This document shows, piece after piece, positions 19,761-41,904 of a DNA stretch of 61,000 nt. The DNA lies in NCBI GenBank assembly GCA_048938445.1, contig JBHLME010000007.1:1-61000 (forward strand). The letters are read 5' to 3'. A program made the position numbers and the translations under genes. The notes under the pieces were generated by a model. That model was not told the DNA's origin. It worked only from the letters and a program-made list of their open reading frames with translations, and did no database searches. Position 1 is the first letter of the stretch. Each line of letters starts with the position of its first letter. Origin of the DNA: Promethearchaeota archaeon (GTDB lineage Archaea > Asgardarchaeota > Lokiarchaeia > Sigyniarchaeales > SOKP01).

Positions 19761-19766
19761 AACTCA

Positions 19767-21095: not shown

Positions 21096-21098
21096 ACT

Positions 21099-21604: not shown

Positions 21605-22081
21605 ATGAATGGGTATGAGAATCCAGAATTAGATGAGATTTATAAAATTAATGAAAATATCTATATTGGTGCTTATTGGCCAAGGTTAAACTTTAAAAAA
21701 ATGAGTAATGAAGGGATCACTGCTATTGTTAATTTAATGGAACACCGTCATTATAGACCTCCTCTTCGCAGATTTAAATATTTATATAAAGGTTTTCCGG
21801 ATAATACATACCCCCCTCATGAATATTTAGATGAAATTTTACATTTTATGGAAGAACATATTAAAAAGAAAAATGGAAAGGTCTTAGTACACTGTGCTAT
21901 GGGGATCTCTAGAAGTGGAGGAATTGTAGTCGCATATCTCTTAAAGGAAAATAAAAATTGGAGTTGGAATGATGCGGTAGATTATGTAAGAAAATCGCGA
22001 GAAATATATCCTGCTATTGAAATCAAGGAATCAATTTTAGATTATTTCGAATCATTAGAAGGATATCGAAGGGAAGCTTAA
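21605..22081 (+). CDS. Dual-specificity phosphatase
   Basis: HCx5R signature VLVHCAMGISRS, followed by AYL...AV.YV...R. Confidence 0.92.
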   Translation: MNGYENPELDEIYKINENIYIGAYWPRLNFKKMSNEGITAIVNLMEHRHYRPPLRRFKYLYKGFPDNTYPPHEYLDEILHFMEEHIKKKNGKVLVHCAMGISRSGGIVVAYLLKENKNWSWNDAVDYVRKSREIYPAIEIKESILDYFESLEGYRREA

Positions 22082-23438: not shown

Positions 23439-23450
23439 GGTGGTCATAAA

Positions 23451-23876
23451 ATGTCAGAAAACAGTAAAGAAATAACAGTCTATAATTACTTAGATTTTTT
23501 GAATAAAAAAGAATTGAAAGGTTCAAAGTGCAAGAAATGTGGAGAACTTTTTGCTCCTCCTAGAAAATTGTGTAGTACATGTGGATCAATTGATATGGAG
23601 TGGGTAAAAATGTCGGGTAAAGGTACTTTAGCTGCCTTTTCGTGTATTAGCGTTGGTACAAAATTTTTTGTAGATAAGGGGTATTCCACGAAAAAACCAT
23701 ATTGTTTTGGTGTTGTAAAACTCGATGAAGGACCAATGATTTCAGCACAATTAGTAGGTGTCGATGAATCTAAACCAGAGACCATAAAAATTGGAACCCC
23801 CCTTAAAATAAAATTCTTGGAAACGCCAATACCTGGAGATGAACCGAGAATTGATTTAGGATTTGAACCTATTTAG
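23451..23876 (+). CDS. DUF35-type Zn-ribbon/OB-fold thiolase partner
   Basis: CKKCG...PPR..CSTC, SGKG, V.LDEG. Directly downstream of the thiolase, with AAGGTGG before the start. Confidence 0.92.
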   Translation: MSENSKEITVYNYLDFLNKKELKGSKCKKCGELFAPPRKLCSTCGSIDMEWVKMSGKGTLAAFSCISVGTKFFVDKGYSTKKPYCFGVVKLDEGPMISAQLVGVDESKPETIKIGTPLKIKFLETPIPGDEPRIDLGFEPI

Positions 23877-24643: not shown

Positions 24644-25288
24644 ATGAGTTTATTAGATAAAATTAAAGGATTGATAGGAAGTAATGAAATACAAGAAATC
24701 ATTAAAGAATTCAGCGATACTATTGATGCGGAAAAAAAATTAGTTAAAGAATCAAGACAACGAATTAGTAGCCTTATAGCATATTCAAAGGTTGAAACAC
24801 CCACCTTAAGAGAAGCTATCGAATCATTAGGAAATACTTTTGAAAACATTGATAATGCTAGAGAAGAAAAAATTGATCAAATGCAAGAAAAGTTCATCCA
24901 ACCTCTAAATCTCTTATTGGAAGAATTTAAAACTTTATCAATGGAATTACGTGAATCAGATAAAGCTAAAAAGGATTTAGATAAAGCAAAAGCTAAACTA
25001 ACTAAATTGAAGGGAAAACCAAAGGAAAAAATGAAACCATATCAAGTAGAAGATGCAGAAGATGCAGTAGGTAAAGCTGCACAAGAAGTATTGACAAAAG
25101 AAAAAGAAGCAAAGGAAGCAAGCGAAATATTCAATCGGAAAAAATTAGAGACTATGAAAGCGGTTTTAGATGATGTAATTTCAATTGAAAAAGATTTTCA
25201 TGAAAAAGTAATAAAATTTATGGCAACTGCCCAGAAAAAGACTGAAGCAATCGATTTAGAAGAAAAACCAGCTGAACTGCCCGAATAA
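24644..25288 (+). CDS. All-helical coiled-coil protein, BAR-domain-like
   Basis: 214 aa in three long amphipathic helices; FIQPL kink followed by Lys-rich DKAKKDLDKAKAKLTKLK. Confidence 0.65.
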   Translation: MSLLDKIKGLIGSNEIQEIIKEFSDTIDAEKKLVKESRQRISSLIAYSKVETPTLREAIESLGNTFENIDNAREEKIDQMQEKFIQPLNLLLEEFKTLSMELRESDKAKKDLDKAKAKLTKLKGKPKEKMKPYQVEDAEDAVGKAAQEVLTKEKEAKEASEIFNRKKLETMKAVLDDVISIEKDFHEKVIKFMATAQKKTEAIDLEEKPAELPE

Positions 25289-25376: not shown

Positions 25377-26783
25377 TTATTCAATTAAAAGTCCACGTTG
25401 TTTGAGTCCTTCTCTCATGTCTGCTTGAAATGGTCCTGGAGTTCCTTCGATAAAAGCATCAACAATATCTTGGTTTTCAATAACTCTAGAATCTCGCTTT
25501 TTTGCCTTCTCTTCAGCCAGTGATGAAATTACCATCTTTGCTATTGATTGAAATTGAGGTGGTGATAATTGTATTAATTCATTGAAAATTTCTTTAGTTT
25601 CAGGAATCCATTTAATTCCATCTCCTTGTTCTACTTTTTCTTTTGCATGACCAATCCCAAATTCACGGCTGGTTATGATATCATCAAGATAATTTTGAAT
25701 GGAATCAACATATTTTGTTGTTGCTTCTTCATTTAATATCACGGCTTTTTTTGCCCATTCCTTACAATAATTACATTCATCACACATCGCGATACAGTTT
25801 TGTTTTTTAAAAAAATCTATGAACCCATTTAATTTATTGTTATCAATATATAATTTAGCTGTAGATTCCTTTCCCAGCGTTCTACCTATTCCCGCGTTGG
25901 GATCAGTCTGTTCTAAGCCTCCATGTGACATTGAAAATCCTTGAATGATATCCACGAGATTACCATCATACTTTCTTTCGGAAAATGCTTTTACCGCTCT
26001 GACAATCCAATCTGTTGACATTCGCCTTCCAGCGATTTTAAAATCAGTTATTCCAATTTCTTCATAATGAGATAAATCCTCAGGACGGACCCAACGACAT
26101 TTGATAATTTCTTCTGGTTGAGAATATTTAATAATATTACAATTTAAAATGCATGTATCTATATAATTTCGCTCAAATTCTTGATGTGTTTGAGATGCGT
26201 GTCCTAATGTATTATAATGATAATGCCGAAAAGGGCACTGATATAAACAACCATCTGTTAAAAGCAAAACTATTTTACACTTTATTGCTTCTTTAATTTT
26301 ACTCAATGTTTTGAAATCCCGATTAATCATCACATCGGGCGTTATTTCGTCAGCACCGAGCATTTCATAGAACTTAGCACGGTTTACACTATTTACATGT
26401 GATATCGTAGAAACTCGGACTTTTAACTTTGGGAATTGCTCTTTAATAAGCTGTATTAAAAATGGAATAGTTACAATCACACTATCGGCTCCAATATCAC
26501 TAATCCATTGAAGATAATTGATAATTTCTTTATGGTAATGTGAATCATATTCCATATTATTCATGCAAGGAGCATTGAGTAAATAAGAAAATTCCATTTT
26601 ATTTTTATGTAATTTTTTGACATATTCTATGATATTCTCTTCAGTTACCTTAGGTAATAAAAAGGAAGGACGACCCCCTCCCACGATGCTATGATCTGTC
26701 ACACCATATAAATCTGCTACGGGATATTTAGCTAATTTATCTATTAACTCAAAATCCCAATTAGTAGCTACGTAGAAATTCAT
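25377..26783 (-). CDS. U32-family Fe-S protein with C-terminal DUF2621/PCP_red-like module
   Basis: GGGRP, YLLNAPC, VST...VNS, INRDF, CLYQCP..HASQ...CILNC, WVRPEDL, FKIAGR, CIAMCDECNYC. ATG at 26783 follows AAGGTGA. Confidence 0.85.
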   Translation of the reverse strand: MNFYVATNWDFELIDKLAKYPVADLYGVTDHSIVGGGRPSFLLPKVTEENIIEYVKKLHKNKMEFSYLLNAPCMNNMEYDSHYHKEIINYLQWISDIGADSVIVTIPFLIQLIKEQFPKLKVRVSTISHVNSVNRAKFYEMLGADEITPDVMINRDFKTLSKIKEAIKCKIVLLLTDGCLYQCPFRHYHYNTLGHASQTHQEFERNYIDTCILNCNIIKYSQPEEIIKCRWVRPEDLSHYEEIGITDFKIAGRRMSTDWIVRAVKAFSERKYDGNLVDIIQGFSMSHGGLEQTDPNAGIGRTLGKESTAKLYIDNNKLNGFIDFFKKQNCIAMCDECNYCKEWAKKAVILNEEATTKYVDSIQNYLDDIITSREFGIGHAKEKVEQGDGIKWIPETKEIFNELIQLSPPQFQSIAKMVISSLAEEKAKKRDSRVIENQDIVDAFIEGTPGPFQADMREGLKQRGLLIE

Positions 26784-26883
26784 TAAATTCACCTTCTTTA
26801 ATTTCAGTTTTTTTCATAGTTTTTAATTTTTAATAAAAAATTTAATTAAATATTAACTTTTTTCAAAATTTCACCAATTTTTA

Positions 26884-28938
26884 TTATTTAATTGCAATCT
26901 CATGAGCCTTTGCGTTTAGGGGTAATAATGGTGCACATGCCATTAGCTTTGTGACATCACCCTCGACAACATACGTTCCAGACATAGTTGCTTGGATTGG
27001 ATCTGATTCTCCTGAATTAACCTTTTTAATCGTATTAAAATTTGTTTTGTGGATGATAGTTGGTACCTCAGGTCCAGAATATTCACCCATTCCCCAAGCC
27101 ATCTTACTATTATTAATATATTGCCAGTAATTCATCTCAGGTTTATCAGTTATAGAATATTGGAATACTAATGTCCCAATAGGTTCTAACATTTGCTCTA
27201 TATCTGGCAATTCATTATAAGCTTTCATAAAGCGTGTAAGATAAGCTTCCCATTCTTCTTTTGTCTCTAATTTTATTTCTTCTTTCATCTGCATTTTTTT
27301 TTTCACCTCCTTTCTTTTTTGATTAGAAATTTGTTTATCATTTATATTTCCCTCATCTTTGGCTTTCTGAGGAAGTAATTCACTGCTAAATGGTAAAGAC
27401 TTGACTGCATATATCTCCTCTTCACTCATGTAGCGCGTTAAATCAATATTCCTTTCGATTAAAAAATCAATATAATCATGCTTAAACGGTTGAGGAACTA
27501 ATTCAATTATAATTGCTATTAATAATTCTTTATTTACTTGTTTTAAACCTTGTTTTTCTGCTGTTCTCTCTGCAGTAAATCCTATTCCCTTTATGGCAGC
27601 ATTCTGTATCTCTTTAGGAATAATTGTCATGACTTCATTTAAGAATGCTTGTGCTTCTGGATCCCATTCTATTCCAAAATATGTATCTGATTCTATATCT
27701 TTAGCAGGAACCTTCAATTTTCTTTCTTCTTTAGGTACAAACATTTCCCAAGTATTAAGATAATCATAGAGATATGACATGAATTCTTTATAAGTCTCTG
27801 TATTCCCTCCTTCAGGTTGAGAATATGCTTTCTTCACAAAATTATTACAATAAAAACATGTAACTCCACAAGATTCTGCACATCTAAGTCCTCCGTGAGG
27901 TAAGTTTTGAATAAAACCGTCTAACTCGTCTCCATCTAATATTGCATCAAAATCAGGAACACTTAACATTATACTTTGGTTATCTGCATCACAACCCATT
28001 TTTTCTTGCCGTGCTGAAAATTCAGAAAATTGATTTCCCGCCAGTATCAATGGATCTGATACGAATGAATAACCATTAAATATTTCTCCTAGATTACCAC
28101 GGAAATCCTTACTACTATAAGCTTTTAAAACATTAATTAACCATTTAGTCCCATATCTTCTACCAGAAATTTTAAAATAATCCATACCAATATCAATATA
28201 TTTATCGAGATCGGATGGTTGGATCCATCTTCCCATAATGACTTGCTCGGGATTGAAGCATTTTTGATTTTGACAAGCAATGGTTGCCCAATCATTATAA
28301 TATCCTTCTAAACAATCATGAGTTTGACTTGCATGAGAACATTCCGTATAATGGAAAAAGCGATATGGACATTCATTAAGACAACAATCATTAGTGAGTA
28401 ATTCAATATCACATTTTACTTTTTCTCGAATTTCTTTAAGAATTGGAAAATTTCGATTAAGCATTATGGATAAAGTTAAAACACCATCAGAACCGATAAT
28501 TTCTTCCCACTCTAATGCTCTTTTTAAAGAATTTATTTCAGATATTACAGAAACTTTCAATTTTAATTTAGGATAGTAGTTTTTAACAAAATTTGCTAAA
28601 TATGGATCACTCACAGTTAAATAATCCATTTCCATATCATCCATCCAATCCAATTCTTTTAATGCTTTGGTTTGCTCTTCCGAATTAAATTTATAATATC
28701 CCAAGCATTCACCATTCCATAACCATGTAAATTTTAGATTTAAATTATGGACCTTGTTAATAAATGCTTCAATTTCTGATATATCTCTTTTAGCCATTAA
28801 AAAAAAGGGACGACCAGAACCAGTAAAACTCATGTCATATGTCCCATAAAAATCATGAACAGTTTGCTTTAATTTAAAATCGTCCTCTATTAGATTCAAT
28901 AAATCTGGCTTCCAGTTGCATGCTAATGAGATTCTCAA
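26884..28938 (-). CDS. U32-family Fe-S protein fused to DUF2621/PCP_red-like and SCP2-like domains
   Basis: GSGRP, LNRNF, CLNECP..HASQ, WIQPSDL, FKISGR, CAESCGVTCFYC. Then the IEWDPEA module and a C-terminal DPIQATMSGTYVVEGDVTKLM. TTG start after GAGGTGA. Confidence 0.85.
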   Translation of the reverse strand: MRISLACNWKPDLLNLIEDDFKLKQTVHDFYGTYDMSFTGSGRPFFLMAKRDISEIEAFINKVHNLNLKFTWLWNGECLGYYKFNSEEQTKALKELDWMDDMEMDYLTVSDPYLANFVKNYYPKLKLKVSVISEINSLKRALEWEEIIGSDGVLTLSIMLNRNFPILKEIREKVKCDIELLTNDCCLNECPYRFFHYTECSHASQTHDCLEGYYNDWATIACQNQKCFNPEQVIMGRWIQPSDLDKYIDIGMDYFKISGRRYGTKWLINVLKAYSSKDFRGNLGEIFNGYSFVSDPLILAGNQFSEFSARQEKMGCDADNQSIMLSVPDFDAILDGDELDGFIQNLPHGGLRCAESCGVTCFYCNNFVKKAYSQPEGGNTETYKEFMSYLYDYLNTWEMFVPKEERKLKVPAKDIESDTYFGIEWDPEAQAFLNEVMTIIPKEIQNAAIKGIGFTAERTAEKQGLKQVNKELLIAIIIELVPQPFKHDYIDFLIERNIDLTRYMSEEEIYAVKSLPFSSELLPQKAKDEGNINDKQISNQKRKEVKKKMQMKEEIKLETKEEWEAYLTRFMKAYNELPDIEQMLEPIGTLVFQYSITDKPEMNYWQYINNSKMAWGMGEYSGPEVPTIIHKTNFNTIKKVNSGESDPIQATMSGTYVVEGDVTKLMACAPLLPLNAKAHEIAIK

Positions 28939-28942
28939 ATAA

Positions 28943-30094
28943 TCACCTCTTTATGACACCTTTTTCCATATTATTCATTTTATTTTTTATAATGTCTATG
29001 ATTTTATCCTGGTGTTGAATGTTTCCATTATGTAATTTTTTTGCGTATTCTATACAATACTCATCGATTTCGTTTTCTTCGGGATAATGTAATTGATATG
29101 GAAATTTTTCACAAAATTCATTAATAATTTCTGGTTTTAATTGCATCATTGAATTCTTAACCCCATCTCGTGACCAGTAGTTTCCATATGGTTGGGGTAT
29201 GTTCAAAATTTCTTCAAAATTTACTGAAAGTTCTTTATTATCATAATTATTAATAATTCTCACTATTTTATCAGTTGAAAAACCACCAGTATAGAGAACG
29301 TAAGTTTCATATCCCAAATTTTCATATTGTTCAATATTACTTGGTGAAATCCAACCAGATTTTAAGAGATTTTCAGGATTTTCTAACCGTTCTTTCCAAC
29401 AATAAAGTAAGGGATAATCAAATTCATTTTCGACATCGGATAATTCTTCTTGATTAGGGAATACAGGAGAATTTATCGTCCGATGACTTTGCATGTTATG
29501 ATGTTGATACCAATGTATGCAACCCCAATTACAACCAATGTTTAATGGTAAAATGCAGTCAATTTCTTTAGTTTTCTTAAATTCTTGCTTGATCTTGATA
29601 AAATTTTTTAAAATTCTAAAATATCGAATAATATCTGGATGTAGGATAATATTGTCTGCTCCTATTTCAAAAAAAATCTTACCACGGTTCAAGGATGTTA
29701 CATATTGCGAATATGATAAGTATATCTTTGAGGAAAAATAATTTTCTTTAACAAAACCAATGTTATTTGGCGAAGATACAAGTAAGTTTTTATATTCCAA
29801 TCCTTGCAATGTTTCAAATAATTTCTTAGTAGCTTTATATTGTTCCATGTGAGCTTCAAGGTTCCCTTGACAAGTTGAATCAATTCCTGCTATAGGGATG
29901 ATACCATTATCTTGGATTGTTTTAGTATAATTCTTAAATTCTTCAAACGTAGGATTCTTTTTAGGTAAAAAAATTGATCCATTCCCAATTGGATTTTGAG
30001 GTACATGAACAATAACGTGTGAAACTGAGAGGTTCTTTTTTCCAATTTGGGTAATTAAATCTTCATCGTAATCTCCATCAATTATTAACTTCAT
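28943..30094 (-). CDS. Divergent U32-family protein
   Basis: IGNG, VTSLNRG, HPDIIR, CNWGC..H..SH, WISPSNIEQYE align with the two neighbouring U32 proteins. The FKxxGR motif is absent. Confidence 0.7.
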   Translation of the reverse strand: MKLIIDGDYDEDLITQIGKKNLSVSHVIVHVPQNPIGNGSIFLPKKNPTFEEFKNYTKTIQDNGIIPIAGIDSTCQGNLEAHMEQYKATKKLFETLQGLEYKNLLVSSPNNIGFVKENYFSSKIYLSYSQYVTSLNRGKIFFEIGADNIILHPDIIRYFRILKNFIKIKQEFKKTKEIDCILPLNIGCNWGCIHWYQHHNMQSHRTINSPVFPNQEELSDVENEFDYPLLYCWKERLENPENLLKSGWISPSNIEQYENLGYETYVLYTGGFSTDKIVRIINNYDNKELSVNFEEILNIPQPYGNYWSRDGVKNSMMQLKPEIINEFCEKFPYQLHYPEENEIDEYCIEYAKKLHNGNIQHQDKIIDIIKNKMNNMEKGVIKR

Positions 30095-30140: not shown

Positions 30141-31751
30141 TTATTTATATGAATCAATTCCTGCCTTACAACCCATTGCTAAGAAATCTACCATGGTTCC
30201 ATTGTAGTCATTTTCAATCTTATAGTAGTGGCCATTAGGTGTGAAAGTAACTCCCCAAATTGCTTTCTTAGAATCACTTTGGAGAGGTGTTCTTTCTAGA
30301 AAATCTTTCATTAATGGATGAAAATGTACTGGTACATCTTCAGTTTTATCACATGACATCCCAAAACATAAACGTTCAATTTTATCTGAATTCCAGCTAA
30401 ATGTGTAATTTAAATGAGCGGCCTTCATGCATCCTTCCATCGCTTCCTTTGATACAGCTTTAAATCCCAGGTCTTCAACAAGTGCTACACAATTTTCATA
30501 AGATGATTTGGGTGGTTCTTTAAGCATGAAATAAATATTTACTGTCTTATGTAGAAAATCAAATGCAAATAGACTAAATGCTGTTAATCCATGCCTTTCA
30601 AAGTATTTTTTATAGTTCTTCATGCTTTCTGGTATATATTTCATTGAGAAAATTGGTTCAATTGAACCTGGAACAATAAATGGCCAGATTTTTGATAATC
30701 CTGTACTTGCATCTACATCTACACCATAACCCATCATTTGAAAAGTTTCCATGGTTTCCCTCATCATGCTATGAATCGGATGATCATCTTTTTCAATTAA
30801 TCCCTCATTAACAGCGTGTGTATAAGGATCTGGATCATGAGGCATGAAAAATTCAACATATCTAAGTGCAACATCTCTTTTTTCAACTGGTTTGGTTGTA
30901 GTTCGAATTGAGACTGGTGCTCCTGCAAAGAAATCTTTATAGGCTTCTATGGCTTTCTGAGCCGTGTTCTTATTGAATTTCACTCCTGTTATATCACAAA
31001 TTTTCTCAAAATCTATTAACATTTGATTCAAATCATTTGTACATTTAAAGTTAGATTGTACTTTAGCCAGATATCTATTATAATCAACTCCCATTTTTTC
31101 CAGATCCGCTGCCATAACCGGTTGAAATGCAGTAGGTGTAACTTCAAACAAAGCAACTATGAGATCTACTTCTGCTACAATCTTTCCTTGTCGCTCTTTA
31201 CATTTAATTTCAGTCTTTTCTAATAGTTCAGGTGCTACAACAGGTCTTACCATTTCTGGCATGTTTAAAACAACCTTATCATAGAGTTCTTTTACTTCTG
31301 GGGCCCATTCCATTGTACTAGACACAGCTGAATTATCAGTTATTGAAGCAGATCCAATTACTTTTTCATGAGCAACTACTTGTAGAGGTAATAAAGGAGC
31401 GCAAGCCATTAGTTTAGCCATATCCCCTTCAACCACGTAAATACCTTGCATGGTTGCTTCTATTGGATTTTGTTCTCCGTTAAATACCTTTCTCACGACT
31501 TCAAAATCAGCTTTATGAACGAGTTTAATATAATCTCCATTTTCAGGATTCTCACCCATCCCTCCACGAATACCATTTTTATCAAAAGCGTGCCAAAAGT
31601 TCAACTCTGGATGATCATTTAAACTATATTGGAATATAGTTGGTTCAATATTACTTAAAATCGGAGTAACATCGGGTAAAGCATTAAATGCTTTGGTTAA
31701 TTTTTCTATATAATCAGTCCAATTAGTTAAATCTCGCAATTCATTTATCAT
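30141..31751 (-). CDS. ABBA-type (NphB/CloQ family) aromatic prenyltransferase with N-terminal SCP2-like and DUF2621/PCP_red-like domains
   Basis: The C-terminal ~300 aa follow the NphB/CloQ motif order: DPY..AV.EGL....HPI, YGVD....GLSKIW, F.RHGL....FDF..KTVNIYF, LVEDLGF, YTFSWNSDKIERLCF, G.TFTP.GHYYKIE.DY. Confidence 0.85.
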   Translation of the reverse strand: MINELRDLTNWTDYIEKLTKAFNALPDVTPILSNIEPTIFQYSLNDHPELNFWHAFDKNGIRGGMGENPENGDYIKLVHKADFEVVRKVFNGEQNPIEATMQGIYVVEGDMAKLMACAPLLPLQVVAHEKVIGSASITDNSAVSSTMEWAPEVKELYDKVVLNMPEMVRPVVAPELLEKTEIKCKERQGKIVAEVDLIVALFEVTPTAFQPVMAADLEKMGVDYNRYLAKVQSNFKCTNDLNQMLIDFEKICDITGVKFNKNTAQKAIEAYKDFFAGAPVSIRTTTKPVEKRDVALRYVEFFMPHDPDPYTHAVNEGLIEKDDHPIHSMMRETMETFQMMGYGVDVDASTGLSKIWPFIVPGSIEPIFSMKYIPESMKNYKKYFERHGLTAFSLFAFDFLHKTVNIYFMLKEPPKSSYENCVALVEDLGFKAVSKEAMEGCMKAAHLNYTFSWNSDKIERLCFGMSCDKTEDVPVHFHPLMKDFLERTPLQSDSKKAIWGVTFTPNGHYYKIENDYNGTMVDFLAMGCKAGIDSYK

Positions 31752-32167
31752 ATTCTTAACCTCTTTTATAATTTATTTTCTTTAAATTTTTTTTAATTAT
31801 TTATTACTTTTTCATGAGCTACTACTTGTAATGGTAAAAAGGGAGCGCAAGCCATTAATTTAGTCATATCCCCATCAACCACATAAAGTCCTGCCATAGT
31901 AGCTTGGACAGGATTTTGTTCTCCAGAAAAAACTTTTCTCACGATATCAAAGTTAGCTTTATGGATGAGTTTGATATAATCTGTATCTTCTGTATTTTCA
32001 CCCATCCCTCCTCGAATACCATTTTTATCAAAAGCGTGCCAAAAGTTCAGCTCTGGATGATCATTAAGATTATATTGGAAAATAGTAGGTTCTACATTTG
32101 TTAATAGTGGTTTGATTTCTGGTAAATCATTAAATTCTTTTGTTAACCTTGTTATATAATCCGTCCA
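31356..32167. repeat. Direct repeat of a 366-bp SCP2-like domain (31356-31721 and 31802-32167)
   Basis: Two copies offset by 446 nt. Hand alignment gives 96/122 identical residues. They share the identical stretch cgaataccatttttatcaaaagcgtgccaaaagttca. Confidence 0.9.
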
Positions 32168-33304
32168 TTCGCTAATATCTAATAATTTATGTTCCTTAGA
32201 TGCGGAAACATCAATAGTATCGCTACAAGGACAACGTGTGCATATCGGTAAAAGTTTATCATTTATCATCCCCTGACGAAATTTACGTATTTGATCTGAA
32301 TCCCACACTTCAGTTAATGGTTTCTCAGTTATATTGCCAAAACTTTTTACTATATATGGACAGTTATAGACGGAACCATCTGGTCCCACATTTGGTGTTA
32401 GTGGCGGCATTAAAGTTAATTGACAGATCGGTTGTTCTTGTTCTCTTAGGGTTCTCCTCCAATAAATTTCAGGATGATCCCCAAAAAATTTTGAGAAAAA
32501 CATTACTTGAATTCCAGATTTCTTCCCTTCTTCTTTCGCAGCATTTATACTATTGATTAATTGTTGTTCTGTATATGATAATTCTCCAACATGTCCATTA
32601 ATCTCAACATCCTCACCAATCCATTTTTTCATTAATTTTTTAGATTCTTTTATCTCATCTTCAGTGATTACATGTCCAAAGATAAAATTTACAGATCCTA
32701 CACCTAATTCAGCACCTAATTTAACCATATCGGGCAATACGTTAACATTTTCATTGACAATAGTGCAATGAATCCATGTCGACAAACCTGCATCTACAAG
32801 CATTTTAATAGCATCTATAGATTTTTGGGGCGCTTTTGTTGAACCCCGGATCTTGCCATCTATTTCACCTGGTGCATTCAATGATACCTGAATATTGACA
32901 AAATTCTCTAATGCTGCTAAACGTTTCACAATAGATTCAGTTATCATCGTACCATTTGTAGACATTATTTGATTTATTCCTTGAGCATCAAAATATTCGA
33001 TCATTTCTATCATTTCATTAATAACGAATGGTTCACCCCCTAAATGGAATAAAACCTTCGCATCCTTAAATCCTTCTTTAATTTGCTCTAATGACATGGA
33101 TGGAATCTTACGGCCTTTCATGTGTTTTACAAGGCACATGTAGCAATTTAAATTGCAATTGTAACTAGCATAAAAACACACATCACCAAGACCACCAGAA
33201 AGTCCATTTTCTCCAATTTTTTTTATAACTTCTAAGGGAGTATCCTTTCCCAATGGCATGGCTTCACGAAGTGATACACCACATCCTATTTGTTCTTCAT
33301 TCAT
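31793..33304 (-). CDS. Radical SAM / twitch-SPASM protein with C-terminal SCP2-like domain
   Basis: CNLNCYMC, GGEPF, STNG, IRG, C...PDGSVYNCP..FGNI....L.EVW...CTRC, then the SCP2-like domain. Confidence 0.9.
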   Translation of the reverse strand: MNEEQIGCGVSLREAMPLGKDTPLEVIKKIGENGLSGGLGDVCFYASYNCNLNCYMCLVKHMKGRKIPSMSLEQIKEGFKDAKVLFHLGGEPFVINEMIEMIEYFDAQGINQIMSTNGTMITESIVKRLAALENFVNIQVSLNAPGEIDGKIRGSTKAPQKSIDAIKMLVDAGLSTWIHCTIVNENVNVLPDMVKLGAELGVGSVNFIFGHVITEDEIKESKKLMKKWIGEDVEINGHVGELSYTEQQLINSINAAKEEGKKSGIQVMFFSKFFGDHPEIYWRRTLREQEQPICQLTLMPPLTPNVGPDGSVYNCPYIVKSFGNITEKPLTEVWDSDQIRKFRQGMINDKLLPICTRCPCSDTIDVSASKEHKLLDISEWTDYITRLTKEFNDLPEIKPLLTNVEPTIFQYNLNDHPELNFWHAFDKNGIRGGMGENTEDTDYIKLIHKANFDIVRKVFSGEQNPVQATMAGLYVVDGDMTKLMACAPFLPLQVVAHEKVINN

Positions 33305-33338: not shown

Positions 33339-34754
33339 TTATTTTTGATATAATGCAAATTGAACATTGCTCATTTCATCAAATCCTTCTGGATTATTGA
33401 ATCCCAGTCCAGGCATCATCCATCTTGGATTTGCTTTACCATAATTTCTTACAACTTTAAAAAGATCTACCTCTTTGATCTTTGGAGATATATAAAATCT
33501 TGGTTTTAGTAGATTTTCTCCTAATTGTATGATTCCTTCTTCTTCGGCTATTAGCTGAAGGGGTGTATGGGGATAAATTCTCATCCCTACAAAGACTATT
33601 ACATCTCCATCTCCTTGCCACAAGTTCCCTTTATGACTTTTTATTGATTCAAGCCTATCTAAGGAAGCTTGAACCGTTTCGAGAGTCTCTCCCGGACCTC
33701 CAACAATAATATGAATTAATTGTTCTATCTCCAAATCTACACATTTTTCTGATGTAAGGATTGCATCATCGGGAGATCTCTTCTTGTTCATGTTTTCCAA
33801 CATTTCTTCAGATAAGGATTCGATACCTGTTGCAAAATGAACTGCACCACTCTCTTTCATCAAGGGCATTAAATCAAGAAATTCTTTACTTGGAACATAG
33901 TTAGCACCCCATTTTACATCGATTTTAGAGTTTATAATTTCTTGGCAAGTGTTCCTTACATGATTATGATTTAAATTAAATATACTATCAACAAAAAATA
34001 AGTTTTTTATTCCATAATTATTTACCATTAATTCAAGCTCTGTTGCGATACTTTTAGGAGACCGATACCGAACATTTGAACCTTCAATATATCTATAACT
34101 ACAATAAATGCAATTCATTGGGCATCCACGCTTGCTTTGAATGTTTCCCCAAGTAACATTAGATTTTTTCAATGGATCAATAAAATAGGCATCATTTTCC
34201 AATAATTCTCTTGTAGGTATAGGAAGATCATCTAGATTTTCAACACGCCATGGTGGCTTCTGATGATATTTTCCATTTTTATCTATGAAACATATGCCTT
34301 TCTCTAGGTTCCTAATATCTTCATCATTTTCGATTTTCTTTAATATTTCAGCTAATACATATTCTCCATCACCAACCACGCCAATATCATGATTCAAATC
34401 CCTAAGAATTTCTTCTGAAAATATTGAAAAACCCGCGCCACCTAAAATGATAGGGATCTCTGGTTCTACAAGGTCTTTTATAAATTGAATTATATTTTTG
34501 ACCGGTAAGTAAAAAAATAGATTTCCGGGGTATGTCGTTGAGTCAACGTTTCGAATTGAAATACCTATTAATTGCGGAGAAAAATCATCAATTATCTTTG
34601 AAATATCCCTTTTATGATCATTACTTAATGTTAAATCAATCAACTTTACTTCATGACCTTGATTAAGGAGATACGCTGCTATATATGCTTCTCCTATGGG
34701 TGGAACCATGACGTGAACTATTTCCCGACTTCCGGAGATTATTAACACTCTCAT
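33339..34754 (-). CDS. Cobalamin-dependent radical SAM protein (resembles the 'lipid biosynthesis B12-binding/radical SAM' family)
   Basis: PPIG, GISIRNVD, ILGGAGFSIF, QSKRGCPMNCIYC, FVDSIFN, GGPGET, GMRIYPHTPL, LLKPRFYISP. Confidence 0.88.
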   Translation of the reverse strand: MRVLIISGSREIVHVMVPPIGEAYIAAYLLNQGHEVKLIDLTLSNDHKRDISKIIDDFSPQLIGISIRNVDSTTYPGNLFFYLPVKNIIQFIKDLVEPEIPIILGGAGFSIFSEEILRDLNHDIGVVGDGEYVLAEILKKIENDEDIRNLEKGICFIDKNGKYHQKPPWRVENLDDLPIPTRELLENDAYFIDPLKKSNVTWGNIQSKRGCPMNCIYCSYRYIEGSNVRYRSPKSIATELELMVNNYGIKNLFFVDSIFNLNHNHVRNTCQEIINSKIDVKWGANYVPSKEFLDLMPLMKESGAVHFATGIESLSEEMLENMNKKRSPDDAILTSEKCVDLEIEQLIHIIVGGPGETLETVQASLDRLESIKSHKGNLWQGDGDVIVFVGMRIYPHTPLQLIAEEEGIIQLGENLLKPRFYISPKIKEVDLFKVVRNYGKANPRWMMPGLGFNNPEGFDEMSNVQFALYQK

Positions 34755-34787: not shown

Positions 34788-36188
34788 TTATTCAATTAAT
34801 TCAATTTCTTCTTCTAAAACATTTTCCACTTTATGATCATGGTCGTTTTCATGCCAACAAAAAGGGAACGATCCAAAAAAATCACCTGTGATATATTCAG
34901 CAGTCACACGACAACCGCCTCCACAATATTTGAGATGATGGCAAGATGCACACTTTCCCTTTATTTTCTTTCTATCCCGAATATCCTTATAGAGTTGGGA
35001 ATTTAATACATCTTCAAAATTATCTTTTAATGCATTTCCAAGGGTTAATTTTGTTGGATATCCAGCAGGATATATTGTTCCATCTATACCAATTCCCATC
35101 ATCGTCCTACAAGCAAGACAACCAACTCCCCATTCAATTGCAGCCAGTTCCTTATCGTCTTTGGGTTGTTCCATAAAAGGCATCATGTCATATATTTCAT
35201 AAGCGGGTAAAGTACCAGCATCACCTTTTTTTATTGTTTCTATAGCATGCTTGTATTTAAAATCATACATCTTTTTGTATTCTTCCGTATTGAGACCAAT
35301 TTCATCCCAATATTCAGCAGCTCGATTTTGTTTTACCACGCATCTAAAATATGGTTGTGAACCCCATTTTTCTGACAATTCTTTAAGTTCTTCAAGCTCA
35401 TCAACATTTTGTTTCATGATTGTAATTGATGAGCAGACAAAAATCCCATATTTCAAACAAACATCAATTGCTTTTTTAGCATATTCTAAGGAATTGGGAA
35501 ATCCTCGAAGTTCATCATTTTTTTTTGGATCAGAACTGTCAAAACTGACGAATACATGACTGATATTGTTTTCCTTACACATTTTGGCAAAATTTTCATC
35601 AAACCTTACACCATTGGTAATGAGCGCATGGATGTAATCCTTATCTTTACAAAATTTCATGATCTCCCCAATATCTTTTCTTAGAGTAGGTTCACCACCA
35701 AACCATACAAAACAAGCATGTCTTCCTTGTTTTCTTAAGCCTTCTTCAACATTTTCTATGATATGGCACCATTCTTTCGCTGATATTTCGGGACGAGGTA
35801 TGTGATCATCCGCTGCACAATGAAGACATTTTTGATTACACTTATCCGTAAGATACATCGCAAAATGGATATTACCTGGATGAAATCCTCTTTCCAACTT
35901 TTGCCAAGACACTTTCAGGCGATCTTTTATATCCTTGAGTTCAATGTATCGATCAACATCAATCCCTAATGATGTCAAGTCTTCAACCATTATGGATTTA
36001 AATGCTTCTGGAATGATATCAAATATCCCCATAACAACATCAGCATCATTAATATAAGCACCATTTCTATCCAGGCATCGATTTTCAGCGGCTTCTACTA
36101 TTAAGGGTTCTACAGAAGGACGGAATCCTTGTGGCATTTGTTCAACAATTCTACCAAACAATACTTGCGTTTCTTTTTCCCATTCCAT
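34788..36188 (-). CDS. Radical SAM/SPASM protein with N-terminal DUF2621/PCP_red-like module
   Basis: CNQKCLHC, FGGEPTLR, TNG, SFD; SPASM CASCHHLKYCGGGCR...PFC. GAGGTGA precedes the start. Confidence 0.9.
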   Translation of the reverse strand: MEWEKETQVLFGRIVEQMPQGFRPSVEPLIVEAAENRCLDRNGAYINDADVVMGIFDIIPEAFKSIMVEDLTSLGIDVDRYIELKDIKDRLKVSWQKLERGFHPGNIHFAMYLTDKCNQKCLHCAADDHIPRPEISAKEWCHIIENVEEGLRKQGRHACFVWFGGEPTLRKDIGEIMKFCKDKDYIHALITNGVRFDENFAKMCKENNISHVFVSFDSSDPKKNDELRGFPNSLEYAKKAIDVCLKYGIFVCSSITIMKQNVDELEELKELSEKWGSQPYFRCVVKQNRAAEYWDEIGLNTEEYKKMYDFKYKHAIETIKKGDAGTLPAYEIYDMMPFMEQPKDDKELAAIEWGVGCLACRTMMGIGIDGTIYPAGYPTKLTLGNALKDNFEDVLNSQLYKDIRDRKKIKGKCASCHHLKYCGGGCRVTAEYITGDFFGSFPFCWHENDHDHKVENVLEEEIELIE

Positions 36189-36199
36189 AAAATTTCACC

Positions 36200-37597
36200 T
36201 CAGATTTGTTTTTGAACAATCGATTTTTCACTAAGATAATCTTCATGTTCATGATCATCATCATGCCAGCAGAAAGGTAGAGCTGCTAAAAAATCACCTG
36301 TTTCATTTTCAGCATGCACCCTACAACCACCACCACACATCTCGAGATGATGACAAGTTGAGCATCTTCCTTTTATCTTCCTATCTCTAATAGCTTTAAA
36401 CATGTCAGAATCCATAATTTCTTGAAAGCTTTGTGTTAAAACATTGCCTAAAGTTAACTGAGAGGGATAATCACAAGGGAAGAAATCTCCATTTACATCG
36501 ATACCCGATACAGACCTACAAGCTTGGCATCCTACACCCCATTCTAATGCAGTTCGTTCTTCATCCGTGCGAGGGCATTCCATAAAGGGAACCATATCAT
36601 AAGTATAAACCTTGTTGAGAAAATTGGCTTCACCTTTCCTAACAGCTTCAACTACATGCTTAAACTTGAAGTCATAAAATTGGCGATATTGATCATAATC
36701 CAATCCGATATCTTCCCAATTTTTCTCTGCTGTTCTTTGCTTGATAACTGCTCTAAAATAAGGTAATGCACCCATAGATTCTAATTTCTCTTGGATTTTA
36801 TCTAACTCATCAAAATTCTCTTGTTGAACTGTGGCGGTACAAATAACGAGATGACCATAGTCAAGTGCTAATTTAATAGCTTTTTCAGCAGCTTCTTGTG
36901 CTTTTGGATGCCCTCTTATTTTAGCAGCCCTTTCGGGATAAACACTATCATAGCTTATGAATACGTGATGCATCTTAACATCAGCACATAGTTTAGCTAA
37001 GTCTTCATTAAATAATAGACCATTTGTAGAAATTGCTTGAAAATATCCTTTTTCACCAGTATATTTAATAAGTTCTTTAATATCATTGCGAAGAGTGGGT
37101 TCTCCTCCAAACCAAATATAGCAACCTCGACGATCTTGTTTGCGTAATGTTTGTTCAACATTTTCTAAAATATCAATCCATTGTTCTGTCGATAATTCTG
37201 GACGTTTACCCATTAATTCAGCAGCACAATGAAGACATTTTTGATTGCATCGATCAGTTAAATACATGGTAAAATGATATACTCCTGGGGCCCATGCTCC
37301 TCCTATATCATCCCATGTGCGAGCATATGCTTTTCTCGCTTCAGATAATTTTATATATCGATCTGTATCAATCCCTAGTTTCGTCAAATCTTGTACAACA
37401 GCAGGTTGAAATGCCTCTGGCGTTATTTCAAATAATGCCGATAATAAATCATCCTTATTGACATATCCAGAATTCCTCAACCGTGCTGTCTTTTCAGCAG
37501 CCTCATGGAGCATTGGTGCTATTGATGCACGGAACATTTCAGGTGTCTGCGCCATGATTACATCATACATTCCTTTAATTTCTTTTTTCCATTCCAT
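36200..37597 (-). CDS. Radical SAM/SPASM protein with N-terminal DUF2621/PCP_red-like module, paralog of 34788-36188
   Basis: CNQKCLHC, FGGEPTLR, STNG; SPASM CQAC...GDFFPC...CSTCHHLEMCGGGCR...PFC. Confidence 0.9.
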   Translation of the reverse strand: MEWKKEIKGMYDVIMAQTPEMFRASIAPMLHEAAEKTARLRNSGYVNKDDLLSALFEITPEAFQPAVVQDLTKLGIDTDRYIKLSEARKAYARTWDDIGGAWAPGVYHFTMYLTDRCNQKCLHCAAELMGKRPELSTEQWIDILENVEQTLRKQDRRGCYIWFGGEPTLRNDIKELIKYTGEKGYFQAISTNGLLFNEDLAKLCADVKMHHVFISYDSVYPERAAKIRGHPKAQEAAEKAIKLALDYGHLVICTATVQQENFDELDKIQEKLESMGALPYFRAVIKQRTAEKNWEDIGLDYDQYRQFYDFKFKHVVEAVRKGEANFLNKVYTYDMVPFMECPRTDEERTALEWGVGCQACRSVSGIDVNGDFFPCDYPSQLTLGNVLTQSFQEIMDSDMFKAIRDRKIKGRCSTCHHLEMCGGGCRVHAENETGDFLAALPFCWHDDDHEHEDYLSEKSIVQKQI

Positions 37598-37702: not shown

Positions 37703-38446
37703 TTAGATTACCCTCATTTGTTTAAAATCTTTATTAAAATCAGAATAATTATTAATTATGAGATGAGGAATATGAAAGGTTGAGTAATAAAAACTTGATC
37801 CCAAAAATCCATGAAGAAAATAAGAAGAAACAGTACTTCCATGAAATTTATTATATTGGAATTCAACTTTTTGATAAAAATTAGTATTTTTTATTTTTGT
37901 TTTTTTCCAAAATCTAAATAAAGTAGGGGCTTTTCCTTTTATTTTGGGAAATTGTCTAATGTAATTCTCAGTAGGATCATTATAGAGGTCACCTTTCTGC
38001 TCAACATTTGGTTTAAGCATGGTGGGTTGATATGTTATGGGAATGGATGATTCTTCTGATGTTTGAGAATCATCATTAGTATTAAGCTCACAAAAATCTA
38101 TATATAGGTATATTTGGAACTTCCTGCTAATAAACACGACTTTTATGTAATGATAAAAGGTCGTGTCAAGGAGAAACAAAAGATTTATTATAATAATAAG
38201 ATCTATCAAATGTCCAAGGGTAAATCCCCCTAGATTAGAAGATGATGGAATAGATGGAATTATCTCAATTCTCGGAAAATATGGAAAAAATAGAGAATTA
38301 CCAGATAAAATATAATCCTGAAAAAATATTGAAAAAACAGAAGTGTTTGTTAATTGTAAATATATGAATATAACTGGAAGCAATGAGAGAAATGAAATAA
38401 CTAAGAATAGTGCTATAAATTTAATGTTTTTTTTCTCTTTATGCAT
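37703..38446 (-). CDS. Hypothetical membrane protein upstream of the operon
   Basis: 247-aa ORF with two hydrophobic segments and atypical composition; no motif recognised. Confidence 0.45.
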   Translation of the reverse strand: MHKEKKNIKFIALFLVISFLSLLPVIFIYLQLTNTSVFSIFFQDYILSGNSLFFPYFPRIEIIPSIPSSSNLGGFTLGHLIDLIIIINLLFLLDTTFYHYIKVVFISRKFQIYLYIDFCELNTNDDSQTSEESSIPITYQPTMLKPNVEQKGDLYNDPTENYIRQFPKIKGKAPTLFRFWKKTKIKNTNFYQKVEFQYNKFHGSTVSSYFLHGFLGSSFYYSTFHIPHLIINNYSDFNKDFKQMRVI

Positions 38447-40250: not shown

Positions 40251-41711
40251 TTAAGTAGTTAGGAACATGTTCGCAGTGCTCAATAATAAAATCAAATTAG
40301 CTACCTTAATTGATAACGAAGACAAACTTTTGGTATCATAATTAATTACATTATAATAATAAGAAGTTTTAGTGTGCTTGAAAGAATTTACAACCTCTGG
40401 AAATGAAGTATATTTTAATTTTATTCCAAATTTTTCGGGTGATTCATGAGCTGGAGAACCTGGAAAAATATAAAAGGGTTCGTTCATCATCGTTACTGGT
40501 GTAGAATGGGATGTCCCATATTTTAAACCACATTTTATCGCATATTGATAATCCTTAAGGACGTCAACACGTTTTTGGAATGGAAAACCAATGGTAAGCC
40601 AAATCCTCAAGATTCTATTATATAGGCTAGAATTTTTGATTAAATCATTTATTTGATTTTTAGGAAATTTAAATGTTGGGTCACATATTTTTCGTATTTT
40701 ATATTGAGCTCTTTCTGAAGTTGTTCTAGGAGAAATGCTAACAGATGAATATTTACGTCGAAATGTCTTAGAAAAAATCTCCCACATATCTCTAGGGAAA
40801 GGCAATCGCCAAATTTCTAGATCAGCGGCAATATCTATCTTTTCTTCCTTAATCAGGCTGAAAATTTGTTTCCAGTATTTAAATGTTCCAGGATACGTGC
40901 CATGACCAAAAAAAATACTCGGTATTTTGTAATTATCATTAATTTCTCTGATATCTTCAACCACTTTTTCTGGACTCCTAAGGATTACTTTATTTCGAGC
41001 CGAATTTCTTATTTGAGCTCTTTGTCCTCCACCACAATATGGACAATTAAATGGACATCCCCTTCCTATAGGAAGATTGAGAGAAATTCCCATGAGTCTT
41101 CTACTACATTCAAGATATTGTTGAGCATTATGAAGAAGTGATACATTCACGAAATTCAAATCATCCAAGTTCTTAGCAACATAACTGATTGGATTAACCT
41201 TTATATGATTAGAGGAATTTCTATAAGATAAATTAGGAACAGAATCAAAAGGTTGGTTTTTTTTAAAGTTTTGAATATAATTTAATAAGGGAATTTCACC
41301 TTCTCCCTTAATAACGCCATCAACATTCTTATAATATTTTAGAATTTGTTCATGATAATATGAAGCGCTAAAACCTCCAAGAATAACTCTTGCATTGGGA
41401 TTAACCTCTTTCACTATTTTAGCAACTTCAATAGCGCCATGTGCATTATGAATCCAATGTAAATCTATTCCACATGTATCAAAATCAATAGTTTTTAGAT
41501 AATCAGCTAAAGACCAATTATGATTTAAATAATCCTCTAAAGGATAATTCAGCATTTTTACTCCAAATCCCTCTCTTTCAATCAAATCTGCAATTGCGAA
41601 AACACCCATAGGAATAAAAATGTATGAGCCTCGTTTAAATCTATTATTTTTGCCTTTATAAGGATTGATCTCCCTTGGTGGATGAATAAAAATTATGTCG
41701 TAATGTTTCAC
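40251..41711 (-). CDS. Cobalamin-dependent radical SAM protein (Ta0216-like subfamily)
   Basis: FIHPP, PMG, GIDLHWIHNAHGA, GGFSAS, GEGEIPL, GRGCPFNCPYCGG, PGSP. Confidence 0.88.
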   Translation of the reverse strand: MKHYDIIFIHPPREINPYKGKNNRFKRGSYIFIPMGVFAIADLIEREGFGVKMLNYPLEDYLNHNWSLADYLKTIDFDTCGIDLHWIHNAHGAIEVAKIVKEVNPNARVILGGFSASYYHEQILKYYKNVDGVIKGEGEIPLLNYIQNFKKNQPFDSVPNLSYRNSSNHIKVNPISYVAKNLDDLNFVNVSLLHNAQQYLECSRRLMGISLNLPIGRGCPFNCPYCGGGQRAQIRNSARNKVILRSPEKVVEDIREINDNYKIPSIFFGHGTYPGTFKYWKQIFSLIKEEKIDIAADLEIWRLPFPRDMWEIFSKTFRRKYSSVSISPRTTSERAQYKIRKICDPTFKFPKNQINDLIKNSSLYNRILRIWLTIGFPFQKRVDVLKDYQYAIKCGLKYGTSHSTPVTMMNEPFYIFPGSPAHESPEKFGIKLKYTSFPEVVNSFKHTKTSYYYNVINYDTKSLSSLSIKVANLILLLSTANMFLTT

Positions 41712-41904
41712 CGTGGCTAACCAAATTTTTAATTATGAATAAATTTTTATATATCTGCAATTTAAGAACTATTAAATATCTATGTTTTAATTATTTTTAG
41801 ATATTATTTTAATTGGTTATGGGTTAATTATAAATTAATAAAAAATTTAAGTAAGTATTATGATTATATCTTTAGATAAATAAAAAATAAAGAGAAAAAT
41901 TCAA

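Follow-up and report, generated by a model that had tools for sequence, protein, structure and literature searches.

The stretch of DNA considered here (hereafter the window) comprises 61,000 nucleotides (nt), positions 1–61,000 of contig JBHLME010000007.1, and belongs to a Promethearchaeota genome of 4.63 Mb in 256 contigs, estimated to be 96.5% complete with 8.2% contamination. Its minus strand carries a tight operon, running from 38446 to 25377 with intergenic gaps of 4–105 nt, whose sixth gene (gene F, 30141..31751) encodes a predicted soluble aromatic prenyltransferase (PT) of the ABBA family. The gene starts with ATG and encodes 536 amino acids (aa), with exactly the boundaries assigned in an earlier note made from the sequence alone. 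That note proposed a three-domain protein, in which an SCP2-like domain and a helical module shared with neighbouring proteins precede an ABBA PT, and each of the three parts is supported by the analysis (Table 1).

The C-terminal part matches the Pfam profile PF11468 (PTase_Orf2) over residues 241–524 with an E-value of 8.5e-52 and 176.8 bits, the cut-off being 22, and covers profile positions 3–283 of 287. Searches of PDB sequences retrieve AmbP1 (E 2.4e-33), FamD1 (5ynt), AmbP3 and EpzP (6.2e-32), followed by weaker matches to NphB (3.1e-20) and CloQ (1.4e-12); a profile built from the Asgard PT family finds FamD1, AmbP3 and AmbP1 at about 1e-57. A full-length AlphaFold2 (AF2) model from 30 homologues has a predicted local distance difference test score (pLDDT) mostly above 90 over residues 240–530 and places ten strands between residues 280 and 514. 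The best Foldseek match of the PT model is AmbP3 (5y72; E 1.2e-25, template modelling (TM) score 0.91, root-mean-square deviation 2.2 Å, 288 columns), with FamD1, AmbP1, EpzP, NphB and CloQ coming next. According to PMC7839719, the ABBA family is defined by a 10-stranded antiparallel barrel composed of five alpha-beta-beta-alpha units, and the barrel of the model is of this type. No membrane segment was found in the protein, the Kyte–Doolittle maximum over 19 residues being 1.63, with one marginal stretch within the helical module. By sequence, predicted fold and solubility, the protein is a soluble member of the ABBA/PTase_Orf2 family. The assignment made in the earlier note therefore stands, as Pfam, the PDB sequence search and the predicted barrel agree; a fold other than the barrel, which the note had taken as the sign of a wrong assignment, did not emerge.

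The NphB/CloQ-type motifs listed in the note are all present in the translation, in the order given there. Lys354, Asn405, Tyr407, Arg460 and Lys511 are invariant in 30 of 30 family members and align with the Lys, Asn, Tyr, Arg and Lys of the NphB strand motifs; Asp293, kept in at least 90% of the same 30 members, aligns with an Asp in NphB. In NphB we take the five strand residues to be diphosphate ligands and the Asp to be a Mg2+ ligand.

By sequence and fold, the closest characterized enzymes are the cyanobacterial hapalindole/ambiguine enzymes AmbP1, AmbP3 and FamD1 (E 2.4e-33 to 2.5e-32, 26–29% identity), with TM scores, normalised to target length, of 0.89–0.92 for A chains and 0.86 for three FamD1 B chains. 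The window PT has the same 10-stranded barrel as these three enzymes and the same strand motifs. As described in PMC7839719, these enzymes are single-domain proteins of about 300 aa acting on indole isonitriles or hapalindoles with C5/C10 donors. The window PT, in contrast, possesses the SCP2 and helical domains and is encoded in an operon of radical SAM and U32 genes instead of an alkaloid cluster. The actinomycete enzymes EpzP, NphB and CloQ belong to the same Pfam family and fold (TM 0.82–0.88, 0.79–0.85 and 0.80–0.83, respectively); they are 18–25% identical to the PT and contain neither SCP2 nor helical modules.

The SCP2 profile (PF02036) scores 19.5 bits in a scan of the whole protein, under its cut-off of 21.3, and 23.0 bits, over the cut-off, when residues 1–135 are scanned alone. 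Related SCP2 modules from the window and related loci match SCP2 at E ≤ 0.1 in 14 of 14 cases (best 2.8e-07). As the full-length model was poor in this region, the domain was folded separately on a 14-row alignment, giving an AF2 model with a pLDDT of 91.4. Its top fold match in the PDB is UbiJ-SCP2 (6h6p; E 4.1e-07, TM 0.72), followed by Thermus TT1886 and then by animal and yeast SCP2s; there are 39 matches at E ≤ 0.001 and, among the matches listed, all are SCP2 proteins or SCP2-like domains of larger enzymes. Judged by profile and predicted fold, the PT protein carries a true SCP2 domain, as the earlier note had suspected. This domain shares 75% identity with the SCP2 that ends the protein of the upstream gene E, and 48% with that of gene H. 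The Gly/Ser/Ala/Thr-rich linker behind it recurs with equal length and similar composition in three homologues (P0001–P0003).

The helical module that follows is indeed shared, as the note had stated. Residues 147–228 are 35–45% identical to the N-termini (about 82 residues) of the gene B and C products, and the module is 26% identical to that of the U32 protein encoded by gene I (BLAST). The helices in the AF2 model span residues 151–232, with a block pLDDT of 70–93. Pfam DUF2621 matches the window module with an E-value of 0.0038 and 17.7 bits, below the cut-off of 27.7 bits, and is sub-threshold in the U32 proteins I and H too (Table 1). A structure search of the ESM Atlas retrieves stand-alone DUF2621 proteins of 85–89 aa at TM 0.85–0.87 and weaker PCP_red rows, both of which we treat as leads only. 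Assignment to PCP_red itself was rejected, as Pfam gives no PF08369 match for the window module even at E 10; neither Pfam nor the structure search matched the module to PqqD. The occurrence of one module on PT, radical SAM and U32 proteins, as judged from sequence, would best be explained by a putative common docking or assembly element. Residues 50–136 of gene B, covering part of the module and a linker, have a weak PDB match (E 1.8e-4) to residues 590–674 of 7bkb_D, annotated as formate dehydrogenase.

The genes surrounding the PT encode radical SAM enzymes with SPASM or B12-binding domains and U32-type proteins. All operon enzymes are devoid of transmembrane segments, which are confined to the gene A product; its hydrophobic regions lie at residues 6–34 and ~72–101, and its homologues are just 28–40% identical, mainly over the N-terminal ~110 aa. 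Bacterial homologues encoded next to a PT gene show 52–61% identity to genes B or C. TIGR04072 ("lipid biosynthesis B12-binding/radical SAM protein") is the top NCBIfam match of gene D, but its 278 bits fall short of the cut-off of 360. Genes H and I pass the Peptidase_U32 cut-off of 22.4 bits. Gene G has no Pfam match and is related to gene I at 24% identity over 370 aa (90.9 bits, BLAST); five of its Cys residues are invariant in 8 of 8 homologues. In gene H, Cys 176, 186, 190 and 222 and a CX3CX3CX2C motif at 353–364 are invariant in 7 of 7 homologues, and gene I has invariant Cys with the spacing CX9CX3CX27CX3C plus CX3CX2CX2C, a pattern resembling that of gene H (CX9CX3CX31C).

Table 1. 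Domains of the gene F protein and genes of the operon and its upstream neighbour in the window.
Feature	Position	Strand	Size or residues	Basis or remark
Gene A, membrane protein, first in operon	37703..38446	-	247 aa	No Pfam/NCBIfam family
Gene B, helical module + radical SAM/SPASM	36200..37597	-	465 aa	Pfam
Gene C, helical module (residues 1–88) + radical SAM/SPASM	34788..36188	-	466 aa	Pfam
Gene D, B12-binding radical SAM	33339..34754	-	471 aa	Pfam B12-binding, Radical_SAM
Gene E, radical SAM/SPASM + C-terminal SCP2	31793..33304	-	503 aa	Radical_SAM 2.9e-17, SPASM 2.8e-11, SCP2 17.0 bits
Gene F, SCP2 lipid-carrier domain	31356..31751	-	residues 1–132	Pfam SCP2 + AF2 fold
Gene F, Gly/Ser/Ala/Thr-rich linker (14 residues)	31314..31355	-	residues 133–146	Ends at the Met starting the 390-aa homologues
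Gene F, helical module	31047..31313	-	residues 147–235	Five helices in AF2 model
Gene F, ABBA (PTase_Orf2) barrel	30144..31046	-	residues 236–536	PF11468; stop codon 30141–30143
Gene G, divergent U32-like paralogue	28943..30094	-	383 aa	BLAST to gene I
Gene H, U32 + helical module + C-terminal SCP2	26884..28938	-	684 aa	Peptidase_U32 37.7, DUF2621 18.9, SCP2 19.1 bits
Gene I, U32 + C-terminal helical module	25377..26792	-	471 aa	Peptidase_U32 50.9, DUF2621 22.4 bits
Gene K, B12-binding radical SAM	40251..41711	-		Pfam; often just upstream of gene A in related loci

Conservation of the operon was assessed in 42 named loci from species-representative genomes, in which open reading frames (ORFs) were labelled by BLAST against the window proteins. 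Thirty of these loci are Promethearchaeota-type; they overlap with the genomes used in the distribution counts below and are not independent of them. The locus search used the Asgard alignment, so bacterial relatives are under-sampled and their taxonomic range is indicative only. Among the 30 Promethearchaeota-type loci, an SCP2 domain or gene and a U32 gene are each present in 27, a helical radical SAM gene in 24, a D-type B12 radical SAM gene in 19 and another B12 radical SAM gene (best match K, J or L) in 15, the K-type usually lying directly upstream of gene A. The loci devoid of SCP2 (L027, L035 and L040) are 2.7–8.8 kb long and cut by contig ends. Two gene orders are seen repeatedly: A-B-C-D-PT-G-H(-I), in which SCP2 is part of H, and A-B-C(-D)-PT followed by a free 130-aa SCP2 gene and gene I in either order. 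The host genome itself contains two more PT copies in tandem on another contig, 390 and 437 aa long and without SCP2. Both lie in a second, shorter copy of the operon on contig C144 (locus L022, 987–10974), where K-A-B-C-D is followed by these two helical-PT genes and then by a free gene for a 135-aa SCP2.

The earlier note had named a bacterial contaminant or chimeric contig as the outcome that would overturn its proposal, and such an origin, or an assembly artefact joining the three domains, we regard as extremely improbable, even though the bin is estimated to be 8.2% contaminated. The window encodes TFIIB, a prolyl-tRNA synthetase with an archaeal/eukaryal C-terminal domain and a BAR-domain protein, and its G+C content is even (0.26–0.35). 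Since the operon is conserved in 30 Promethearchaeota-type loci, in some of them on Promethearchaeota contigs of 461–498 kb, the PT gene is neither a bacterial contaminant nor a chimera. The junction between SCP2, linker and helical module is bridged, with 0 differences, by a contig from a second sample of the same study (run X2, record 4, 31227–31581), and the fused form recurs in P0001–P0003; contigs of runs X3–X5 cover the region in short pieces, none of which crosses the fusion junction.

A search of 5.8 billion proteins returned 139 matches, and 112 of the 120 listed are PF11468 proteins, counted as clusters at 90% identity. Among these 112, 22 have a source name: 21 are labelled as Asgard metagenome-assembled genomes (MAGs), mostly Promethearchaeota or Lokiarchaeota with additional Hod-, Thor-, Hermod- and Odinarchaeota, and one as "marine sediment metagenome". 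Seventeen clusters among the matches listed already bear the automatic name "aromatic prenyltransferase". Nearly all listed PF11468 proteins are about 390 aa long and consist of the helical module and the PT; among the matches listed, the 536-aa three-domain layout is restricted to P0001–P0003, which come from other sources and are 68–76% identical to the window protein. The PT family, as sampled by these sequences, is thus not a lone archaeal oddity: it comprises at least 112 clusters, its usual form is the 390-aa helical-PT protein, and the SCP2 fusion is a rare derived variant. Among related genomes, 8 of 41 encode the family, all within the window's own taxonomic family; the 33 devoid of it include the three single-contig genomes of this order (G032, G033 and G038), and cultured strains may therefore be without the PT. 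Across the phylum the count is 32 of 400, comprising, besides the host genome (G000), 28 of 134 genomes in its own family and 3 of 5 from two further families of its class; the remaining families yielded no case. A representative library of 1.84 billion proteins contains only 214 representatives of the entire PTase_Orf2 superfamily at E ≤ 0.001. Other fusions also occur in the superfamily: P0236 (627 aa) combines the PT with a polyprenyl synthetase, and P0146 (611 aa) with a FAD_binding_4 oxidase.

SCP2 is joined to the PT in several ways, indicating that the two are functionally linked. The order SCP2-helical-PT is found in the window protein and P0001–P0003, and helical-PT-SCP2 in P0066; a distant representative, P0126, has SCP2-PT without a helical module, its SCP2 match being sub-threshold at 17.2 bits. 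In some loci a free SCP2 gene directly precedes or follows the PT gene; in L026, gene E is followed by a free E-type SCP2 gene and then by a 390-aa PT. Other arrangements are PT-helical (P0110 and P0112) and the PT alone (P0111). In a careful IQ-TREE run on the helical-PT part (51 rows), the four N-terminal fusions occupy three well-supported places, requiring a minimum of three changes of state, and the window PT groups with the unfused P0005 and P0006 at 100/97. A single clade of N-terminal fusions was rejected by the approximately unbiased (AU) test (p-AU 2.8e-5). The linker, of one length and similar make-up in the four fused proteins, suggests from sequence a common origin of the junction, in conflict with the tree; the intergenic spacer of L026 is not homologous to it. 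Recombination between paralogous clusters, or repeated fission, could reconcile the shared linker with the split tree.

Relatives outside Asgard archaea were placed by a quick IQ-TREE run on 87 PT domains, with an assumed root on Streptomyces SCO7190-like and Nocardia sequences. These stand-ins for actinomycete PTs fall outside the clade holding the window PT. The Promethearchaeota PTs form one clade of 41 rows with a Shimodaira–Hasegawa-like approximate likelihood ratio of 100, enclosed by groups of 56 rows (support 82) and 66 rows (support 93). Its neighbours come from a Thermoplasmata MAG, a Helarchaeota MAG, Deferrimicrobium, Aminicenantes, Anaerolineae and Clostridia/Bacillota, the latter including Acetivibrio clariflavus and Pseudobacteroides; several of these bacterial PTs bear the helical module too. 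Such neighbours imply that the family has been exchanged between anaerobic bacteria and archaea. The direction of transfer cannot be read from the tree because its root is assumed and its deep supports are moderate.

A helical radical SAM gene lies next to the PT gene in 5 of the 9 bacterial loci and in all 3 loci from other archaea. In L058, L056, L059, L063, L051 and L054, the helical radical SAM proteins are 52–64% identical to B/C and the PTs are 32–42% identical; on these sequence identities the helical radical SAM protein appears much more constrained, or more recently exchanged, than the PT. Three loci contain additional genes, each set being observed in one locus. The Pseudobacteroides locus encodes three U32-DUF2621 proteins, two HemN-like radical SAM proteins, a HEAT-repeat protein, a NUDIX protein and a DAHP synthase. 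In a Thermoanaerobaculia MAG (L063, 783–6530), the PT and helical radical SAM genes are followed by two cytochrome P450 genes with no U32 gene in the locus, and these P450s may be the oxygen-dependent counterpart of the U32 hydroxylases. A Clostridia locus adds a class-I SAM methyltransferase. Taken together, these single bacterial loci repeat a logic of prenylation, hydroxylation and methylation around a shikimate-derived aromatic compound.

A precedent for combining SCP2 with U32 proteins is the oxygen-independent synthesis of ubiquinone, in which, as described in PMC6747719, the SCP2 protein UbiT accompanies the U32 4Fe-4S hydroxylases UbiU and UbiV acting on a prenylated aromatic substrate. 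The same source describes a natural UbiT-UbiU fusion in Zymomonas, as well as UbiJ, whose SCP2 domain binds polyprenylated intermediates and organises the soluble Ubi enzymes. The window operon likewise brings SCP2 and U32 together, gene H repeats the SCP2-U32 fusion known from Zymomonas, and among PDB folds UbiJ-SCP2 comes closest to the SCP2 model of the PT protein. The systems differ in that a soluble ABBA PT stands here in place of the membrane enzyme UbiA, radical SAM enzymes are present, and the host is archaeal instead of proteobacterial. Members of the UbiA superfamily (UbiA/MenA and the archaeal DGGGP synthase) also transfer prenyl groups, according to PMC7839719, formally the same type of reaction, in pathways to lipoquinones and lipids; they are integral-membrane proteins unrelated to the PT. 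As three UbiA-family genes lie elsewhere in the host genome, the ABBA enzyme is an addition to them and not a UbiA replacement.

The domain identities, folds, conserved operon and repeated SCP2-PT fusion are established, and on this basis we propose that the operon's oxygen-independent enzymes build a prenylated, hydroxylated and methylated aromatic lipid, the PT performing the lipid-committing step and SCP2 carrying the greasy intermediates. We give this proposal somewhat better than an even chance; the parts that we infer are the step order, what SCP2 and the helical module do, and what kind of product is made. The PT would attach an isoprenoid chain to an aromatic acceptor, probably derived from shikimate. 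The greasy prenylated product would then be captured by SCP2, which is fused to the PT, to the radical SAM/SPASM protein E and to the U32 protein H and elsewhere occurs as a free 130-aa protein, and would be presented to the soluble tailoring enzymes. The U32 proteins H, I and G, putative Fe-S proteins resembling UbiU/UbiV, could hydroxylate it without O2, B12-dependent radical SAM enzymes would likely methylate it, and the SPASM enzymes may catalyze one more reaction, for instance decarboxylation or C-C coupling. The product may be passed to membrane protein A, and the helical module on the PT, SPASM and U32 enzymes might serve as their shared docking or assembly handle. The earlier note had suggested that SCP2 could hold an isoprenoid donor longer than usual; the context agrees better with SCP2 passing prenylated product and intermediates from one soluble enzyme of the operon to another. 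A small-molecule product is favoured above all by the varied hydroxylases (U32 in most loci, P450 in the one Thermoanaerobaculia locus) and methylases (B12, HemN and class I) surrounding a constant core of PT and helical radical SAM. We envisage a quinone- or phenol-like compound or a secondary metabolite; the pathway behind it would be an accessory one, patchy in Loki-type Asgard archaea and shared with anaerobic bacteria.

Several observations weigh against this proposal. It names neither acceptor nor donor, and the prenyl transfer itself is predicted from sequence and model. The best structural relatives of the PT use indole alkaloids or phenazines with C5/C10 donors, needing no lipid carrier, and an additional N-terminal domain on a SPASM radical SAM enzyme is typically seen in peptide maturation. 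The distribution of the PT family across the phylum is patchy, and the helical module reaches the DUF2621 cut-off solely in a bacterial homologue, a U32 protein (27.9 against 27.7 bits). In the operon U32 proteins the Cys spacing is CX9CX3CX27-31C; it differs from the CX6CX15CX3/4C pattern that PMC6747719 gives for the 4Fe-4S site of the U32 family, besides the UbiU/UbiV variants. Neither UbiA, UbiE, UbiG nor any Mqn gene was found among the window ORFs scanned, a scan outside which seven ORFs of at least 100 aa fall; the operon is therefore not a ubiquinone pathway, the likeness being one of logic only. The genome, at its estimated completeness, has no NuoH-type (PF00146) or MqnA/D (PF02621) match, which would leave a respiratory quinone without an obvious user. 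Given these missing matches, the three UbiA-family genes and the patchy operon, an accessory metabolite or membrane-active phenolic lipid is as probable a product as an electron carrier.

The three radical SAM/SPASM enzymes carry an additional domain at a site often occupied by peptide-recognition domains, and could alternatively belong to the maturation of a ribosomally synthesized and post-translationally modified peptide (RiPP). Cyanobactin prenyltransferases prenylate peptide side chains. By analogy, the PT would prenylate a peptide side chain and the SPASM and B12 enzymes would cross-link and methylate the peptide, the helical module recognising its leader and SCP2 shielding the resulting lipopeptide. 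B12 radical SAM enzymes are known from peptide pathways, matches to ApyD and a RiPP C-methyltransferase occur, and the PDB sequence matches of gene B include PqqE and SkfB; NCBIfam also reports MftC, PqqE, PapB and AlbA-type maturases, all far under cut-off. However, the operon gaps contain no precursor gene or candidate ORF, the small ORFs at 41700–43000 are of low complexity, and the module is DUF2621/PCP_red-like and not PqqD. Furthermore, the PT falls in PF11468 with small-molecule enzymes as its best matches, genes for DAHP synthase, NUDIX, P450s and a small-molecule methyltransferase accompany it in bacterial loci, and U32 combined with SCP2 points to a lipid-tailed aromatic compound, so that a peptide substrate seems unlikely to us.

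The PT may also be a stand-alone enzyme of secondary metabolism acquired from bacteria, to which its neighbours and the SCP2 fusion would be functionally unrelated. Its patchy occurrence, its nearest non-Asgard relatives in anaerobic bacteria and the bacterial loci L060, L061 and L064, which encode the PT without other operon genes, are compatible with this idea. Yet the gene order around the PT is kept across the 30 Promethearchaeota-type loci, its pairing with the helical radical SAM persists across domains of life, the PT and its neighbours bear an identical module type, and SCP2 is fused in at least three arrangements; we regard functional independence as improbable. Even less credible, in our opinion, is a tetrapyrrole or membrane-lipid substrate, such as an anaerobic prenylated tetrapyrrole whose macrocycle would be bound by the PCP_red-like module. 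The top NCBIfam families of genes B and C are AhbD/AhbC/NirJ (121–145 bits), gene D also matches BchE and has as its top match the "lipid biosynthesis" B12 radical SAM family, and, as a lead only, the helical module looks like the PCP_red domain found in (bacterio)chlorophyll reductases. These matches nevertheless lie far below cut-offs (145 against 500 and 278 against 360 bits) and are of a kind that any SPASM or B12 radical SAM protein tends to give; no tetrapyrrole biosynthesis gene is present among the window ORFs scanned, and we know of no ABBA enzyme acting on a tetrapyrrole.

Returning to a prenylated aromatic lipid, a bolder version of the proposal, which we find possible though rather doubtful, holds that the operon gives Loki-type Asgard archaea and anaerobic bacteria a new, fully oxygen-independent and membrane-free route to a new isoprenoid quinone or phenolic lipid. 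In such a route, soluble ABBA enzymes would replace UbiA/MenA, U32 proteins would hydroxylate, and B12- or HemN-type radical SAM enzymes would methylate. The DUF2621-like module would let each enzyme take its substrate from the SCP2 carrier, making the pathway a lipid analogue of carrier-protein or leader-peptide guided biosynthesis.

Work on ABBA prenyltransferases has dealt almost solely with single-domain enzymes from the natural-product pathways of actinomycetes, cyanobacteria and fungi. The enzyme described here comes from the archaeal lineage nearest to eukaryotes, is physically attached to a lipid carrier and resides within a conserved operon of strictly anaerobic chemistry. The ABBA family itself is known, and some of its Asgard members had been named automatically; the SCP2 and DUF2621-like modules on an ABBA enzyme, the operon and the host range of Loki-type Asgard archaea and strict anaerobes are new, the operon being the most informative part of the finding. 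No publication on this PT family or operon was found in the literature searched, the search lying outside subscription journals and supplementary files. Should the product be a redox- or membrane-active prenylated aromatic compound, Asgard archaea would gain a new lipid class and a pathway logic (soluble enzymes, an SCP2 chaperone and U32 hydroxylases) so far known just from proteobacterial ubiquinone synthesis. If true, this would also supply the first functional contexts for the DUF2621/PCP_red-like module and for a large U32 group of anaerobes. The repeated SCP2 fusions offer an experimental handle, as activity with and without the carrier can be compared.

The surroundings of the operon look, by gene content, like a larger lipid or biosynthetic island. 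The window contains seven B12-binding radical SAM genes (33339–34754, 38754–40199, 40251–41711, 42959–44419, 50064–51509, 51537–53042 and 53130–54569), two genes for LuxE-like acyl-protein synthetases (48648–49949 and 55487–56722), a family-2 glycosyltransferase gene (46319–47665) and a CDP-alcohol phosphatidyltransferase gene (45290–46234). Rfam detects no RNA family in the window. Beside the operon, on the plus strand, the 214-aa BAR-domain protein (24644–25288) matches PF03114 with an E-value of 5e-11, plus FAM92 and BAR_3, and represents a eukaryote-like membrane-curvature domain in an archaeon.

Elsewhere on the same strand, the region 22179–23876 encodes a thiolase followed by a ChsH2-type zinc-ribbon/OB-fold (DUF35-like) protein, with no adjoining HMG-CoA synthase gene. 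The pair presumably corresponds to that of the archaeal acetoacetyl-CoA thiolase/HMG-CoA synthase complex which starts the mevalonate pathway. A DAO/BFD-type FAD oxidoreductase, a pyridine-nucleotide disulphide oxidoreductase and a DUF1667 protein are encoded at 18297–21479 (plus strand), a trio that, as we assume, resembles the anaerobic glycerol-3-phosphate dehydrogenase set; it is followed by a gene for a dual-specificity protein phosphatase (21605–22081, plus strand).

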